Positions 32,192 through 39,166 of a stretch of DNA of 64,000 nt are shown here, piece after piece. The DNA comes from an uncultured Thermoprotei archaeon. Its GTDB lineage: Archaea; Thermoproteota; Thermoprotei; Thermofilales; B15-G2. The DNA is taken from positions 32,001-96,000 of the forward strand of contig CBDUKN010000001.1 in NCBI GenBank assembly GCA_965367815.1, read 5' to 3'. The notes beneath the pieces were generated by a model. It had not been told where the DNA came from. It searched no databases and saw only the letters and a list, made by a program, of their open reading frames with translations. Positions within the stretch are counted from its first letter, which is position 1. The number at the start of each line of letters is the position of its first letter. The translations under genes and the position numbers were made by a program.

Positions 32192-33393
32192 GTGGAAGAA
32201 AAGAGCTTACTAGAAGTCTATGAGAGTAAGTCAGCCTTAAGAGGTTTCATAACTCCTCTTTTTGAAGAAGGATTTACTATAGCAAATATAGCTGCATCTA
32301 TTCTTGCTGGCGCTGAATGTGATGTGTCTTTACCCCCGCTTTCTGGTGAAGTACTAGAGCCTGAAGTGTTTAATAAAAATAAAATAGCATTAATTATAGT
32401 AGATTCCCTTAGATATGATTATGCAGTAAAATATTCAAGTAAAATACCTCGCATAGAAGTTAGATCCATTCTATCTACAGCGCCTTCAACAACAGTCACT
32501 GCTCTAACAAGTATATCTTATGCTTCATCACCTTTTCTACACGCTATGCTAGGCTATAAAATGTTTTTAAAAGAGTACGGTGGAGTAGTAAGAATACTTG
32601 ACTTTACTTCAGCGGCTGTTTCTCAAAAAGAGTCTCTTAAAGACTCACTTGTAGATCTTTCAAAATTAGTAGACGAAAAAACAATTTTTGAGAAACTCTC
32701 TGAGAAAATTATAAAACATTCTTTCTAGTAAGAAAAGGACTCTGCGATACGAGTTTTACGAGGTTGCTGTCTAAAGGTGCCATTTGTCAAGAATATTTCA
32801 CTTTACCTCAAATGTTTGTTAAAATAGCTAAGCTCCTAAGAGACCACGAAAAAGTGTTTATTTACGCATATTATGGGGCTCTAGACGCTATTAGCCACGA
32901 AAACGGTCCTTTCTCAGAGGAATACAGAAGAGAAGCAGAAAACGTCTTTTATTGGATAAAAGTATTCATAGAAGAATTGGCGCCAGAAAAAGACTATACA
33001 TTGCTAATTACGGCTGACCATGGGCAGATATCGATTTCAGAGCATCATATAATTGATATTCGCGCGCTGAATCTATATAAAGAGCTTAAAGTGCCTCCTT
33101 TCGGCGAAAGCCGCTTCACATACTTTATTGCTGAAAAAGAGTTTCTGTTCGAAGGCCTAGAGAATATAGCTGAAGTATACACTATAAAGGAGCTTGCAGA
33201 GAAAAAAGTATTTGGAGAAAAGTTCTCCGAGAAATTCTGGGAAAGAGCAGGGACTTATGTTGCTTTAGCTCTCGAAGACTATTGTCTAGTACATCCTTTT
33301 ACTAAAAAGGACTTGGAGTTTAAGCCAAAAGGACACCACGGGGGATTAAGTAAAGAAGAAATGATAGTACCATTAATGAGTCTAGTAGCTTAA
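32192..33393 (+). pseudogene. Alkaline phosphatase-superfamily phosphodiesterase/nucleotide pyrophosphatase, one frameshift near 32713
   Basis: VDSL, PSTTVTALTS, LDAISH..GP, TADHG, GHHGG; halves in different frames joined at ATAAAAC. Confidence 0.75.
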
Positions 33394-34383
33394 AGGCAGT
33401 TTAACTGGCTCTCCTTTCTTATGCGACTCGTAGGCAGCGAGAGCAATTTCTAGTGCTTGGCGTCCATCCCAGCCGCTAGCTTTGGGTTCTTTGTCTTCTT
33501 CTATGCACTTAATGAAGTCTTTTATCATTTCTTTGTCACAGTCGGGGCCGAAGTAAATCCACTTCAGTGTTTCGCCTTTAGAAGCCAAAGTTATACATGA
33601 ACGGAAAGCATCTACGAGAATGTATCCTTCTGTACCGAATATGCCTAAGTAGACGTCACCCCATATAGGCCAGTTGTCAGGTCTGCTCCAGCTGCAGTCA
33701 ATGCTTCCGAGAACACCTTTTCTGAACTTCAGTAGAATGAGAGCATTATCTTCTGAGAGTAGTTCGGGCCTAATGTTTACTCCTATTTTAGCATAAACTG
33801 TATCAACTTCATCTCCAGTATACCAGCGCATGAGGTCAGCTGTATGTACAGTGTGATCCATTACTGCTCCGCCGCCAGCAAGCTTAGGGTCAGCGAACCA
33901 GAGTCCAGGGTATTTGCCGTGGTTAGTAGTAGTTATAGCCAGTATTTCGCCTATTTCGCCTCTATCAATTAGTCTCTTAACTTCAACTGTTGTCTCGTGG
34001 TAGCGCATAACGAAGGCTGTCTGAAGCTTAACTCCATGCTTTCTAGCTGCTTCAATCATTTCGTCGGCATCCTTCAGTGTTGTAGCGAGAGGCTTTTCAC
34101 ATATAATGTGTTTTCCGTGTTCGGCTGCCGCGATGACTAAGTCGTGGTGCTTAGCATTTTCTGAAGCAACTATTACTGCATCTATATTTTCTTTCTCTAA
34201 GAGCTTATAGTAGTCACTATACTTTTTATCAACCTTATATGTTTCGGCAGCTTTCGCTAATCTATCAGGGTCGTCATCATATATGGCGGCTAGCTCTGCA
34301 TTAGGTAGTTCTTTAAGTACCCTGGCGTAGCTCCAAGCATGAATATGTGCAAAAGACAATATAGCGAACTTATGCACTTTCAT
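33382..34383 (-). CDS. Gfo/Idh/MocA family oxidoreductase
   Basis: H..CEKP, GGGAVMDHTVH. Confidence 0.9.
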   Translation of the reverse strand: MKVHKFAILSFAHIHAWSYARVLKELPNAELAAIYDDDPDRLAKAAETYKVDKKYSDYYKLLEKENIDAVIVASENAKHHDLVIAAAEHGKHIICEKPLATTLKDADEMIEAARKHGVKLQTAFVMRYHETTVEVKRLIDRGEIGEILAITTTNHGKYPGLWFADPKLAGGGAVMDHTVHTADLMRWYTGDEVDTVYAKIGVNIRPELLSEDNALILLKFRKGVLGSIDCSWSRPDNWPIWGDVYLGIFGTEGYILVDAFRSCITLASKGETLKWIYFGPDCDKEMIKDFIKCIEEDKEPKASGWDGRQALEIALAAYESHKKGEPVKLPLSY

Positions 34384-35390
34384 GGTATCACCTCTTCAGA
34401 TAGAGGGAGTTTGACAGGTTTACCTTCTTTCAAAGACTTTAAAGCAGCTAAAACTACTTCAAGAGTCTTTTTGGCTTCTTCGCCTGACACTAGAGGCTCT
34501 TTATCTTCTTTAACACATTCAATGAAGTGTTTTAACTCAAGGAAGTAGGCATCTTCGGTCTGAGGAATAAAGTCTACACACGAGTTTTTCTTGAATACTT
34601 TAAGTGAAGCTGTATAATGGTTGTCTACTGTAAGAAGTCCCTCTGTTCCAGCGATCTCAAAATATGTTGTGAATGGAAAGCCTTCAGGCATAATCCAGCT
34701 TCCTTCGACATAAGCAATTGCACCCGACTTGAACTTAAGTAGCGCGTGAACATAGTCTGGGGCAGTAGAGTCCTTATATAGAAGAACTCCTCCCTGCGCG
34801 TAAATCTCTTCTACTTCTCCTAAAAGCCAGCGCAGGAAATCAACGTCGTGTATGCTCATGTCAACAAACACTCCTCCACCTAATTCGAGTTTCTTGTGCC
34901 ATGGAGCCCACATAGGAAAACTGGACTGCCTATAGGCTCTCGCTATTCTAGGCTCACCTATAGCACCTGATTCAACAAGCTCTTTTACTCTAACATACTC
35001 GGGCCAGAATCTAAGACAGTGAGCTACCATAAACTTTAAGCCCTTTTTCTTAGCAGTATTAATCATTTCATCTGCATCCTTCAGCCTCAAGGCAATAGGT
35101 TTCTCGCATACAACATGTTTGCTGGACTTCAGTGCTGCGACAGCAATCTCGCAGTGAGTATATGTTGGAGTACATATATCAACTACATCAATATCCTTCA
35201 TCTCAATGACTTTAGTGTAGTCAGTGTACCATTTATCTACCTTAAAGGTTTCAGCAGCTTTACGTGCTCTCTCCTCAATAATGTCGACGACAGCCGCGAC
35301 CTCAACATCTTTTATCTGCTTAAGCGAAGGAAGATGTTCTGCATTCGCTATAAAACCACAGCCAATCACGGCTACTCTGATTTTACTCAT
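34380..35390 (-). CDS. Gfo/Idh/MocA family oxidoreductase (start likely ATG 35390)
   Basis: GCGFIA, CEKP, GGGVFVDMSIHD. Confidence 0.9.
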   Translation of the reverse strand: MSKIRVAVIGCGFIANAEHLPSLKQIKDVEVAAVVDIIEERARKAAETFKVDKWYTDYTKVIEMKDIDVVDICTPTYTHCEIAVAALKSSKHVVCEKPIALRLKDADEMINTAKKKGLKFMVAHCLRFWPEYVRVKELVESGAIGEPRIARAYRQSSFPMWAPWHKKLELGGGVFVDMSIHDVDFLRWLLGEVEEIYAQGGVLLYKDSTAPDYVHALLKFKSGAIAYVEGSWIMPEGFPFTTYFEIAGTEGLLTVDNHYTASLKVFKKNSCVDFIPQTEDAYFLELKHFIECVKEDKEPLVSGEEAKKTLEVVLAALKSLKEGKPVKLPLSEEVIP

Positions 35391-35619
35391 TCTCTCTATA
35401 GAAAAATCAGCATTAAGTAAAATAAAACTTATCACATTATAAGAGAAAGCACACAAGCCTATCTTTAATCAATGTCTTCCCAACTAAGACAAATTAAAGC
35501 TAAATATTTGTCAATACTGCTATCCTCTTATTTAGTACTTTCGCTAAAATATAATAGGCGTCTAAAGAGTAGAGTAAGACAATACTACAGCAGCAAACGC
35601 GATACAAATCTAAAAAACA

Positions 35620-35668: not shown

Positions 35669-35867
35669 CTAGTAGTCTAAATCTAAATCGAGGATAATTA
35701 ATTTTTCAGCAAGTTCTGTCATAGTGTTCTAGGCAGAAGACAATATAGCTAAAGGCTGCAGTCCAATACACTAAAGACTAGGTAAGTTCTCTGAATGAAA
35801 AATACATTTGCCTAATATACTAATACAATGGTCAAATCAACTTAGATAATACGTAAAAATGCCCGTA

Positions 35868-35881
35868 GAAAGCTATATATA
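35868..35881 (+). promoter_or_regulatory. BRE-TATA promoter of the structured RNA
   Basis: GAAAGC-TATATATA at -30 to -23 relative to G35904. Confidence 0.7.
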
Positions 35882-35903
35882 TTTTGGAAACAAGTATAAT
35901 AAC

Positions 35904-36054
35904 GCCGGGCGCGGGAGCACGCCCCGCCTAAACCCACTAAGTCCCGCGGCTCCGGTACCACGCCGAGACCCCTCCCTTCGGGGAGGAGTCCCGGCAAGGT
36001 ACCGAAGCACGCAGGGACTCAGTGGGGAACGGTGGGGCTTAAACCGCGCCCGGC
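35904..36054 (+). ncRNA. Unidentified 151-nt rod-like structured RNA
   Basis: 108/151 G+C; 11-bp terminal stem, near-continuous nested helices, C(UUCG)G apex; promoter upstream, T6 downstream. Confidence 0.75.
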
Positions 36055-36060
36055 TTTTTT
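36055..36060 (+). terminator. Oligo-T terminator directly after the RNA terminal stem
   Basis: TTTTTT immediately 3' of CCGCGCCCGGC. Confidence 0.6.
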
Positions 36061-36070
36061 ATTAACGGAA

Positions 36071-36721
36071 TTAAAGTTCAGAAGAGAATATGTTTTTGAC
36101 ATATTTGCAATAATAACTAACAGCGTCTACTTCTATTATCTTTAATTCATCTACGTTAATTATGTAAATGTAGTCTATTTTTGCTTTTATTAGTTCGTCA
36201 AGCGATATAGGTGGAGACTTATAGTAATTATCTAGTAGCATTTTTATTTTCTTTAATTCTTCTACATTTCTCTGCGAACTAGGTAAAGTGAATTCATAGG
36301 GTATTTGAAGAATATGATAAGGTGGAGTTGCTAGAATGAATATGTCTGCATATTTACTGTACCTAGCTATTTTGCTTATTTCGCGTGCGCGCCTATAGTT
36401 AACTGGGTCTACCGAATTAGATGGAGGTACAAATCCCGTTTCTATTTCAACAATATATTTGAGGCCGTCTTTTTCGGCGTAAATATCGCAAACAAGGCTT
36501 TCTTCAAGCTCCTTTTCGACTTCAACATTCATTCCTTTGTTCAAGAGATATTTAGCTATAATAAACTCCATAACTGAATGATTCGATTTAACGAAGCCTT
36601 TCATCCACATTTCAACGAGCTTAGTTTTGATTTCTTCAAGTTTCTCGACTACTTTATGGTCAAGCTGACCATCGAGTTTAGTCATTATTAAGTCAAGGTC
36701 GTCGGCTAAGGTCTTAGGCAT
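36071..36721 (-). CDS. Conserved archaeal hypothetical protein with PD-(D/E)XK-like motif
   Basis: VEVEK...CDIYA...IVEIETGF.PP...SKIARYS; I recall similar uncharacterised Cren-/Thaumarchaeal proteins. Confidence 0.7.
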   Translation of the reverse strand: MPKTLADDLDLIMTKLDGQLDHKVVEKLEEIKTKLVEMWMKGFVKSNHSVMEFIIAKYLLNKGMNVEVEKELEESLVCDIYAEKDGLKYIVEIETGFVPPSNSVDPVNYRRAREISKIARYSKYADIFILATPPYHILQIPYEFTLPSSQRNVEELKKIKMLLDNYYKSPPISLDELIKAKIDYIYIINVDELKIIEVDAVSYYCKYVKNIFSSEL

Positions 36722-36999
36722 TCAGAAGGAACTAAGTCTTATTTAAAGAAAAATGTATCAGATAAAATACGAATCCCACATAGTTCGACAGTTGTAGAAA
36801 CTCGAGAATTCATGGGCGAGAACCACTGTCCTCACCTAGCTTCGCAGAGGAGAACATTAGACGAGCTATAGAGATTATTGAATTTAAAATTTGGTACTAA
36901 AGGCTTCTAGCTTTAGTCTCAAGTCTATGTAGCTACTCACAAATGTTTAGCAGACATTATGAAAACTTATTAACTGCTAGCTAGTACAATTACAGGAAA

Positions 37000-37599
37000 A
37001 TGCAGACAGAGACTCTAGTGAGCTTAATCAGCATAATTGTTACCATTATAGGGTCAACAGCATCAATAGCCTACTGGCTAGGCAAAAAATTTGCTGAAAT
37101 AGATAAAAAGTTTTTTGATGAAATAAATAGGAAATTTGGTGAGATAGATAAGAAATTTAATGAAATAGATAAAAAGTTCAGTGAAATAGATAAGAGGTTT
37201 GCCGAGATAAATGAAGAGTTCAGTAAGGTTCATGAAGAAATAAAAGCTATTGATAGGAAAGTAGAGAGCATTACTAAAGCTACTCGAGACCAACTAGAAT
37301 TCTTCTCAGAATTCCTAGGATTCAGAGGTATCTTTACAGACAAAGACGTAGCCTTCGTTAAAAGCGAACTACAAAGACTCTCAGCTCGAGCAGTAAACCC
37401 TCTAACTAAAGAAGAATTAAAGAGAATTAGAGAGCTCATCGAAAAAGACGAGCTAACATTCGAGGAAGCAGATGAGCTCAGAGAACTAGCGAGAAAATTC
37501 GTCGACGAATACTGGCACATACCAGGTGCACACAAACTACTCATATATGCATCAATAATGAGAGGAATAGCCATGAGAAAACAGAAAACAACCAAGTAG
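37000..37599 (+). CDS. Membrane-anchored coiled-coil heptad-repeat protein
   Basis: N-terminal TM, (K/R)(K/R)F.EI(D/N) repeats, NPLTKEE helical C-domain. Confidence 0.75.
   Translation: MQTETLVSLISIIVTIIGSTASIAYWLGKKFAEIDKKFFDEINRKFGEIDKKFNEIDKKFSEIDKRFAEINEEFSKVHEEIKAIDRKVESITKATRDQLEFFSEFLGFRGIFTDKDVAFVKSELQRLSARAVNPLTKEELKRIRELIEKDELTFEEADELRELARKFVDEYWHIPGAHKLLIYASIMRGIAMRKQKTTK
37084..37212 (+). repeat. Six imperfect 21-bp tandem repeats (one unit 24 bp)
   Basis: Units of the form AARARRTTY.NNGARATARAT encoding KKFAEID etc. Confidence 0.8.
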
Positions 37600-37800: not shown

Positions 37801-39166
37801 ATGAGCTCAGAGTGGACCAAGCTAACTGTAGAGGATCTGGGACCCATATCCCATGCAGAAATCACAATTAGGCCGGTAACAGTTATAATAGGCAAAACTG
37901 TTTCGGAAAATCGCTTCTAATAAATCTAGCATACTTACTCTCCGATACACTACCCGATCTCTCCCAATTAAGAAGAGAAGTCGGCCAAGAGGCCGATAGA
38001 CTTGCTGAACAGGCTTACAGCGCAATTAAGGCAGAGAATGCTCATGAATTAGCTAAAGCTCTTTCCAAAATGCTCTACGTTTACTTTAGAAAACTCGACC
38101 CCGCTATAAAGGAGAATCTCACTAGTCGATTTAAAGAGTTTTTCAATGTTAGAGAAATAGCCGATCTATTTAGAGGACATATAATAGTCAAGAATTCTCC
38201 TCTCTCATACTTTATTAAAGCAGAGAAAAGTAAGCTTGCAGTAAAGTTCAGCGGATACGAGGAGCTTGAAGTATATGTGAAAAATATTGAGCAAGAGCGT
38301 TTAGAGACTTTTCTCCTAGACGTAGGATTACGATGCGAGAAAAGCGGTGAAGAGCTTAGGTCTTTTCCCTATAGAGTCGAGGATCCAGCAGATATTCATT
38401 CACTAGTTGGTGTACACTTACTTCCCTATGCATTACTTTATTTATATCCACTTAGCTTTGGAGTCAGTAAACCGTTCCTCCTTACCGATAGTAGAGCTGG
38501 AATTCTGAGGCTAGCCAGAACCGCTGTAGCAACTACACTTGAATATGGTCGGCTACTTGTGCCAGCTAGAGAATCTGCTTTTTTAGCAGCTTATAACAGA
38601 TTAGCAGTAAGGTTCAGAGAGAAAGGACCTTTAAAAGAACTTGAAAAACCATTCAAGAAGTTTCTAGCTGAAATAGGATTAAAGAACATCGAGGTCAGAC
38701 TAATAGGCGGGTACCCCGAAATATACGTTGAAGATATATGGGGTAAGAAGCTTCCACTAGAGGAGTGCCCAGGCGGAGTCAGAGAATCTTTGTCTGCTGC
38801 ACTAGCCCTTGTTACAGAAGATAAAGGCTTAGAAGCACTTTTCATTGAGGAAATAGAGTCTCATATACATCCTAGGGCATAAAATTACTTGATAGAGCTT
38901 GCTTGGAAAGCGGTGTTGAGTAGAATGAATAAAAAATTGATGTTTCTCATAATGACTACTCATAACCCTATAGCCTTGTCGAAGCTCAATAACTTGATAC
39001 TGAAAACTGGTGAAAAAGGTTATGATCTAGTAACTATAGTTCACTTGAGAGAAGTCAACGGTGCTGTAGAGTCAGAGGAGCTGGAAGTAAGCGAGAAAGG
39101 GTTTGATGAAAGCGGCTAAGTGAGATATTTGTGGAGCTTTTAGAGGAGAGAGGCGAACTAGTGTGA
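37801..39166 (+). pseudogene. ABC/AAA-type ATPase (AAA_15/AAA_21-like), multiply disrupted
   Basis: LGPISHAEI.I.P.TVIIGK / CFGKS broken Walker A; signature-like PGGVRE, FIEEIESHIHP, TTHNP; in-frame TAA 38880 and frameshifts. Confidence 0.75.

Follow-up and report, generated by a model that had tools for sequence, protein, structure and literature searches.

A candidate rod-shaped non-coding RNA gene of Thermoproteota and its linkage to the gene of a predicted PD-(D/E)xK-fold protein

Structured non-coding RNAs (ncRNAs) that are constantly associated with a nuclease open reading frame (ORF) are known from the HEARO/omega-RNA of IscB and from the RNAs of TnpB. These RNAs are encoded on the strand of the ORF, contain a guide that is single-stranded, and form part of mobile elements present in multiple copies. 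A different arrangement is found for Y RNA, whose gene adjoins the gene of its protein partner Ro and which is bound via its terminal stem. To our knowledge, apart from the universal ncRNAs and the guide small RNAs (sRNAs), few have been described in archaea. Here we describe a rod-shaped RNA gene at positions 35904..36054 (+ strand) of a 64,000-nucleotide (nt) stretch of contig CBDUKN010000001.1 from an uncultured Thermoprotei archaeon; this whole stretch is referred to as the window. The RNA belongs to a previously undescribed RNA family, termed class A, that occurs in several family-level lineages of Thermoproteota, and its gene is convergent with that of a 216-residue protein with a predicted PD-(D/E)xK fold. 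We consider it rather probable that the RNA is a stand-alone ncRNA partnering this adjoining nuclease-like protein, a putative partnership that is suggested by the linkage of the two genes and whose function is likewise putative.

The Y RNAs of Ro60/Rsr, including bacterial YrlA with Rsr (see PMC4201824), are likewise ncRNAs of ~100-150 nt whose ends pair into a stem that is conserved, with an asymmetric protein-binding loop and a variable distal module. The class A candidate partner differs in having a PD-(D/E)xK fold and not the Ro ring, and the distal part of the RNA is a plain rod and not a transfer RNA (tRNA)-like module. In contrast to the IscB and TnpB RNAs, class A RNAs are found on the strand opposite the protein gene, have no evident single-stranded extension, are single-copy and are apparently vertically inherited. 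The 6S RNA is likewise a long, mostly double-stranded rod and a possible decoy. However, class A lacks the large central bubble and has no match to 6S RNA in Rfam, and we know of no link between 6S RNA and a nuclease gene. Archaeal signal recognition particle (SRP) RNA and bacterial 4.5S RNA resemble class A as GC-rich hairpins with paired ends and conserved asymmetric loops, whereas the rod locus has no match to archaeal SRP RNA (RF01857), and the genuine SRP RNA of the source genome lies on another contig (G000:C34:3661-3993, 164.8 bits). Neither the RNA nor the RNA-protein pair was found described in the full texts and the 2026 preprints on prokaryotic intergenic elements that were covered, a scope outside which subscription journals and preprint supplements lie. 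The euryarchaeal RNA of PMC5069720 is unrelated to class A. The RNA family and its pairing with the protein family are both treated as new, because no Rfam family fits and no description was found in the literature.

The source genome is denoted G000 (2.45 Mb, 99.4% complete), and G001 is another species of the same genus, g1. L-numbers denote protein-gene loci, and f- and g-numbers are family and genus labels within the genome set. R1 is a covariance model made from nine members, with the window RNA left out of its training. The features of the locus are as follows.

35868..35881, + strand: transcription factor B recognition element (BRE)-like GAAAGC and TATA box TATATATA, at -36..-23 of the RNA, as read from the sequence
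35904..36054, + strand: class A rod RNA gene, 151 nt, based on minimum free energy (MFE), single copy, the G001 homologue and the R1 score
35904..35914, + strand: 5' arm of the terminal stem P1, partner 36044-36054, 11/11 Watson-Crick pairs
35915..35920, + strand: 5' internal loop GAGCAC, family consensus RRGYAN, conserved in the family
35921..35928, + strand: 5' arm of P2, partner 36031-36038, opening pairs G-C, C-G, C-G on a base-by-base check
36039..36043, + strand: 3' internal loop UUAAA, family consensus UUAGA, conserved in the family
36044..36054, + strand: 3' arm of P1, from the base-by-base check
36055..36060, + strand: T6 run, a likely archaeal terminator, as read from the sequence
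36071..36721, - strand: ORF of the 216-residue protein with a predicted PD-(D/E)xK fold, convergent with the RNA, its stop codon 16 nt from the RNA 3' end

The rod RNA has a GC content of 71.5%, compared to 39.9% for the window. An earlier note on this DNA had proposed a set of nested helices, a UUCG cap, a TATA-like box and a T6 run, and the base-by-base check found every one of them pairing or placed as claimed. Going inward from the two ends, the helices are 35904-14/36044-54 (11 perfect pairs), 35921-28/36031-38 (8 pairs including one G.U), 35933-38/36021-26 (6 pairs), 35940-51/36006-19 (arms of 12 and 14 nt, consistent with bulges), 35953-59/35998-36004 (7 pairs) and 35962-76/35981-95 (13/15 pairs), with the last one capped by C(UUCG)G. 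The box TATATATA at 35874-35881 occupies -30..-23 of the RNA, and T6 is directly 3' of the last paired base. The alternative helix 35938-47/36032-41, which had also been pointed out, is present as well, with its 10 bp consisting of 8 Watson-Crick and 2 G.U pairs. The MFE of the + strand is -117.1 kcal/mol, compared to -67.2 ± 4.2 kcal/mol for dinucleotide shuffles (z = -11.9), and none of the 200 shuffles was as stable. The - strand has an even lower MFE of -130.6 kcal/mol, in agreement with the earlier remark that A.C oppositions on the + strand would become G.U pairs on the - strand. It should be mentioned that several A.C oppositions on the RNA strand of the distal rod (window 35904-36054; L002 971-1124) are seen in this genus only. 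Possibilities for their origin are selection on the convergent messenger RNA (mRNA) 3' end, base modification, or a deliberate weakening of a helix with very high GC content.

The window RNA was compared with the known RNA classes. Two checks that the earlier note had called for, one against Rfam and one for dispersed copies, have been run. With Rfam 15, there are no matches at or above the gathering score in the whole window. In a permissive mode the top-scoring families are mir-1294 with 28.6 bits (its cut-off being 90) and mraW with 28.0 bits (its cut-off being 50); the two matches lie on the - strand and are of a generic hairpin kind. No tRNA or transfer-messenger RNA gene was found in the window by ARAGORN. 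There is no match at the rod locus to RNase P RNA (RF00373, RF02357) or to a small nucleolar RNA family of Rfam, and the 3' end enters T6 without the ACA of an H/ACA sRNA; a C/D or H/ACA sRNA was thus not recognized. Y RNA has no Rfam match at the rod either, and no TROVE/Ro60 gene was found in G000. The loci related to the window RNA, including those of the branched class B introduced below, likewise match no Rfam family. Two candidate identities could be ruled out. The rod is not a substitute for RNase P RNA, since a normal RNase P RNA is present elsewhere in 4/4 of the other genomes with a class A RNA. It is also not a miniature inverted-repeat transposable element (MITE) or another repeat derived from an insertion sequence, as the search for dispersed copies found the rod RNA to be single-copy in G000.

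Among 60 relatives, the only homologue at the level of BLAST is in G001 (74% identity, E 1e-12). The G000 and G001 rods have the same fold, with 5 double compensatory changes in 36 shared pairs, and an A/T-rich box upstream is common to both. The remaining members are more divergent, and the part conserved throughout class A is the base of the rod only. The two ends form a terminal stem, P1, of ~6-14 bp. P1 is followed by a 6-nt 5' loop RRGYAN and by P2, which opens with G-C, C-G and U.G; a 5-nt loop UUARA lies on the 3' side. On the return strand, GGC precedes this 5-nt loop, UUAGA in the family and UUAAA in the window RNA. The distal rod is variable in sequence and length (108-233 nt), still paired and often capped by UUCG. 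In the window RNA, GAGCAC and UUAAA are found in the expected places and P2 starts with G-C, C-G, C-G. Two alternative descriptions of the basal loop were considered by comparison with known motifs. A canonical kink-turn was rejected, as by eye neither orientation places a G.A/A.G tandem next to the C stem, and a sarcin-ricin-like AGUA/GAA reading fits some members only.

Covariation was evaluated on several alignments. A5 is a 9-sequence subset of A4, a MAFFT alignment of 12 rods that is misaligned in the middle and at one 5' end. A7 holds 16 sequences aligned under guidance of the model, with the window RNA included, and A9 holds 18 metagenome sequences from loci chosen by the protein, at least 2 of which are identical to training sequences. 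As both A7 and A9 were fitted to the model, they are biased toward the structure of the model. Every P1 pair in the family shows double compensatory changes. The first two pairs of P2 are invariant in A7 and A9, and the third is U.G in 14/16 sequences of A7 and 18/18 of A9, and C-G in 2/16 of A7; it is C-G in the window RNA. RNAalifold on nine members gives 18 basal pairs, of which 15 show double changes that compensate each other. In A7, 97.5% of the cells are paired, 15/18 pairs are double-changed, and the covariation of 0.728 compares to 0.238 in shuffled alignments, with 0/500 shuffles as high. The corresponding values for A9 are 94.8%, 14/18, and 0.615 versus 0.246, again with 0/500 as high. 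When the partner columns were slid, covariation stayed at or below 0.176 (A7) and 0.156 (A9). The low values after sliding, as well as the variety of pair types, speak for a genuine covariation signal. The earlier note had asked for a covariance model from related genomes; such a model has been built, and its basal helices covary strongly.

When its filters are off, R1 detects the window RNA on the + strand with a score of 19.6 bits (E 0.003-0.006). With default filters the window RNA is missed, which indicates a low sensitivity of the model. Considering that no Rfam family matches, that the gene is single-copy, that a homologue exists in G001 and that the family model recognizes the RNA, the earlier proposal of a novel, unannotated archaeal ncRNA gene on the + strand stands. 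Neither R1 nor R2, the model applied below to metagenomes, detected L041. A match of the basal descriptor at L041 was rejected as a class A RNA because it overlaps an ABC-transporter ORF. As a separate observation, in genus g14, to which L041, L042 and L043 belong, a conserved element with C-box-like and D-box-like motifs is present at ~2240-2300, within the gap that follows the protein gene downstream and opposite to the protein's strand. We take this element for a probable C/D box sRNA and not for a class A RNA.

The coding strand of the RNA can be assigned from features of 23 family members, in which promoter boxes and T-runs were counted by eye. A BRE/TATA-like A/T-rich box is found 20-45 nt upstream in 22/23 members, with L041 as the exception, and a run of T5 or longer occurs within 15 nt downstream in 8/23. 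Over the 23 rods there are 148 G.U pairs versus 25 A.C 1x1 mismatches on the RNA strand, compared to 76 versus 56 on the other strand. The RNA strand folds better in 19/23 members; the exceptions are G000, G001, L033 (slightly) and L041, the last one being rejected as a member. The basal loop is asymmetric and its orientation is constant across members, and the invariant or near-invariant U.G would turn into a mismatched C.A if read from the other strand. Because of the upstream box and T-run, the loop orientation, the U.G pair and the G.U bias, the RNA strand is taken to be the one antisense to the protein, which is the + strand in the window. From the promoter, the terminator and the strand bias we also infer that the rod RNA is transcribed. 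An antisense or single-stranded DNA role, which the earlier note had kept open, is disfavoured for the family by the same mismatch counts and strand preference.

These strand features also bear on the idea that the element acts at the level of DNA, as a palindrome or cruciform that serves as a nuclease recognition site, an origin-like element or a MITE. A near-perfect 150-bp inverted repeat beside a nuclease-fold gene, with both strands folding well in this genus, is what such an element might look like. However, a DNA element would be hard to reconcile with a bias of G.U over A.C on one strand, with an invariant U.G that reads as C.A on the other, and with a non-palindromic internal loop conserved in one orientation. 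The element is moreover single-copy without dispersed copies and is flanked by a promoter and a T-run. We therefore regard a purely DNA-level role as hardly credible.

The main clue to the role of the RNA is the adjoining protein gene on the opposite strand, which had been overlooked in the first reading of this DNA. In G001 the same protein (224 residues) adjoins the RNA on the other strand, with the hairpin 63 nt past the stop codon. In three further metagenome-assembled genomes, one of Thermofilaceae and two of Thermoproteota, a long hairpin lies directly beside the protein gene in each. Linkage was then seen from the side of the RNA: a scan of 151 whole Thermoproteota genomes with R1 gave matches in 12, one per genome, with 7/12 of these genomes outside the training set. 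At 12/12 matches the protein gene is 96-347 nt away and on the opposite strand. None of the matches belongs to a genome lacking the protein, in a scan of low sensitivity that missed G000 itself. R2 was run on 80 metagenome loci chosen by the protein with a threshold of E <= 0.01. It gave 19 matches, 19/19 on the strand opposite the protein; 18 are upstream of the protein gene, and the single downstream one is the window's own sequence. At about 6 further metagenome loci a very stable structure adjoins the gene that R2 does not recognize. In the genome loci scanned, the basal descriptor matched beside the protein gene only, aside from weak matches and the one rejected match overlapping an ORF.

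Loci chosen by the protein give a complementary view. They comprise 49 loci from genomes other than the source genome, 29 taken from the survey of the protein described below and 20 hand-picked. A class A RNA is beside the gene in 11/49 (L046, L047, L049, L051, L053, L054, L060, L076, L077, L080, L081). A second type of RNA, class B, is beside the gene in 8/49 (L052, L056-L058, L061, L062, L078, L079). In every RNA-positive genome locus the RNA is opposite the protein strand, either upstream and divergent or downstream and convergent. The other neighbours vary by lineage and are ordinary chromosomal genes, e.g., PCNA, DNA ligase, Nre, ThiI, PAC2, HypD and radical SAM.

Class B is a branched RNA of 180-215 nt that is placed and oriented like class A with respect to the orthologous protein gene. 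It is found in families f40 (L052, L056, L057, L058, L061, L062) and f29 (L078, L079). Its layout is an 8-bp P1, a loop CGGRANA opposite GAAA, a 6-bp P2 and then three hairpins, and the pairing of P1 and P2 is kept via compensatory changes between f40 and f29.

The two layouts are relevant for an action in cis on the mRNA of the neighbour, either as a 3' untranslated region (UTR) stabilizer or terminator hairpin or as a convergent antisense RNA controlling the nuclease gene. The window itself would suit such a role, since the hairpin begins 16 nt past the stop codon in G000, at the distance given above in G001, and in both the mRNA strand gives the more stable fold; a convergent layout is also seen at L034 and L035, where a few bases separate the hairpin from the stop. 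However, the RNA is upstream and divergent in all 12 genome matches and in 18 of the 19 metagenome matches, where neither a 3' UTR nor an overlap with the mRNA is possible. The conserved loop is asymmetric and kept in one orientation, and the promoter box and the strand bias belong to the RNA strand. Archaeal termination, moreover, requires T-runs and not hairpins. Regulation in cis is thus quite unlikely as a general explanation.

It is somewhat less improbable, though still unlikely, that the RNA is a stand-alone ncRNA with a function of its own, such as a 6S-like or other decoy or the partner of some other protein, and that its adjacency to the protein gene is inherited gene order. Inherited order has difficulty with the pairing of RNA and protein gene, which persists in both divergent and convergent layouts while every other neighbour changes, and with the 12/12 genome-wide RNA matches beside the gene, none being in protein-less genomes of the scan, whose model has low sensitivity. 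What speaks for it is a set of protein genes without a recognizable RNA beside them, and the fact that the binding of the partners is putative and suggested by linkage.

The same facts, with several others, count against the partnership that we favour. Gene linkage alone suggests the protein binding. No RNA was recognized in 30/49 of the genome loci chosen by the protein. In family f15 there was none at the 12/12 loci inspected, with the downstream gap being folded in 10 of them (8/10 of L066-L075, and L059 and L065), and R2 had no match in the sister families f5 and f8, of which five genomes were scanned. Divergent members are poorly recognized by the covariance models: the G001 RNA scores 16.5 bits (E 0.078), and L034, L035 and L053, undetected by R1 and R2, were placed in class A by eye. 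In G000 and G001 it is the protein's strand on which the rod is more stable, by 14-17 kcal/mol, opposite to most of the family. The runs containing window 35700-36800 number 19, and all are DNA metagenomes, with no RNA run among them. Finally, only position and a loosely similar base suggest that class A and class B are homologous.

A further observation concerns f15. In ten loci of this family (L066-L071, L074, L075, L059, L065), a downstream gap of 160-190 nt holds a conserved Cys-rich ORF of ~50 codons, zinc-ribbon-like and on the protein's strand. This ORF sits where other lineages carry the RNA.

The protein was surveyed in 401 Thermoproteota genomes and is present in 178 of them (~44%), nearly always in one copy. 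It is common in f15 (42/56), f29 (22/24), f30 (8/8) and f20 (14/17), and was not found among the genomes searched of f10 (0/23), f22 (0/32), f14 (0/12), f17 (0/16) and g5 (0/6). There are 1194 homologues at E <= 1e-3, all of them unnamed and none with a Pfam domain. Their source names and the atlas taxa indicate Thermoprotei, Nitrososphaera, Bathyarchaeota and Thermoproteota, and the protein atlas has 'hypothetical protein' clusters only. For the 216-residue protein itself, no Pfam, NCBIfam or PADLOC family was found, and a profile search against PDB sequences returned nothing. No viral relatives were seen among viral contigs, nor did the protein turn up in a fused or longer form, the latter being weak evidence. 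The distribution was also compared with that of DNA polymerase D. A link between the two was rejected, as PF03833 and the protein are present in 0/13 versus 7/13 genomes of f5, 18/32 versus 0/32 of f22 and 8/8 versus 0/8 of f23, respectively.

An alignment of 30 diverse members has 32 invariant columns, including N47, H48, E69, D79, E92, E94, R113 and K117. The AlphaFold (AF2) model of the protein has a predicted local distance difference test score of 92.8 and a predicted template modelling score of 0.89. Its fold matches are 3dnx (Z 9.2, root-mean-square deviation 2.2, 103 residues aligned), XisH 2okf (Z 9.1), AF1548 1y88 (Z 7.9), NucS 2vld (Z 6.9) and many restriction enzymes. On this basis we are confident in predicting a core with the PD-(D/E)xK fold, alpha-beta-beta-beta-alpha-beta, which would be shared with the XisH/SPO1766/AF1548/NucS-type proteins. 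The core is preceded by an N-terminal two-helix extension, a helical hairpin of residues 1-44. Identity to the proteins of these types is 14-17%; unlike them, the 216-residue protein has no Pfam match, carries the extra residues 1-44 and has E-x-E instead of E-x-K. At the position of the catalytic motif, D79, E92 and E94 are invariant, the third residue of the triplet being E and not K. The invariant K117 could stand in for the motif lysine, and catalytic competence of the protein is likely, as judged from these conserved residues.

The identity of the protein levels off at 40-50% across classes. Together with the single copy and the presence by family, this plateau suggests old vertical inheritance and not a mobile or defence module. 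The comparison is important for a toxin-antitoxin-like module, in which the RNA would be the antitoxin or inhibitor of a toxic PD-(D/E)xK nuclease. A two-gene unit of nuclease and structured RNA with its own promoter, in tight linkage, has the composition of such a module. However, a single-copy gene present family by family, with that level of identity across classes and with housekeeping neighbours, does not behave like one, and there is no PADLOC match, no viral copy and no repeats. We hold a toxin-antitoxin function to be very improbable.

The partnership with the adjoining protein may be pictured as follows. A single-copy gene would produce a stable rod ncRNA of ~150 nt from its own BRE/TATA promoter, with the transcript ending at the T-run. 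The conserved basal loop would be the docking site for the PD-(D/E)xK protein. RNA and protein would form a ribonucleoprotein (RNP), where the RNA would act on the nuclease-like protein as a scaffold, gate or sequestering agent. Among the functions offered in the earlier note, the best fit is an RNP scaffold, given the tie of the RNA to the neighbouring protein gene, while a DNA-mimic or 6S-like decoy and a guide fit less well. A more far-reaching version, which we put forward tentatively and consider doubtful, is that the pair is an ancient, vertically inherited RNP enzyme of Thermoproteota. The rod RNA would be the obligatory cofactor that targets or gates a housekeeping nuclease, and class A (rod) and class B (branched) would be lineage versions of it. 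If true, the pair would define an RNA-dependent nuclease of a new class, with no relation to CRISPR, IscB/TnpB, Argonaute, RNase P and Ro/Y RNA.

In any event, the locus presents a conserved ncRNA, backed by covariation, that is genetically tied to a deeply conserved and unannotated protein family. The RNA may have gone unnoticed in that groups with complete genomes have no protein, such as f10 and g5, or have the protein without a recognizable RNA, such as f15. The pair is a testable candidate for a new archaeal RNP and would provide the first functional handle on an orphan nuclease-fold family.

Several side observations were made in genus g1 and in the window. RNase P RNA was not detected in G000 or G001: the best score with RF00373 was 13.6 bits in G000, with none in G001, and RF02357 gave none in G000. 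The protein subunit p29 was not detected in G000 and G001, nor p30 in G000. Both genomes have a full-length HARP-type (TIGR03875, cut-off 95.3) gene, at G000 C2 69693-70223 (-) with 184.8 bits and at G001 C36 13083-13619 (-) with 162.4 bits. For comparison, RNase P RNA is present in G044, G047, G121 and G100, the first three of which also have p29, and a HARP match above the cut-off was found in none of the four. These gene contents suggest that the RNase P of genus g1 may be protein-only.

Other genes of the window near the RNA are two tandem paralogous GFO/IDH/MocA oxidoreductase genes with a 4-nt overlap, at 33382-34383 (-) and 34380-35456 (-), and, at 37000-37599 (+), a gene for a 199-residue coiled-coil protein with a hydrophobic N-terminal stretch. 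The gene at 38070-38882 (+) encodes a 270-residue protein whose C-terminal part has a weak match to AAA_21 and to PADLOC AriA (E 3.8e-6). This protein may be the remnant of a defence system.

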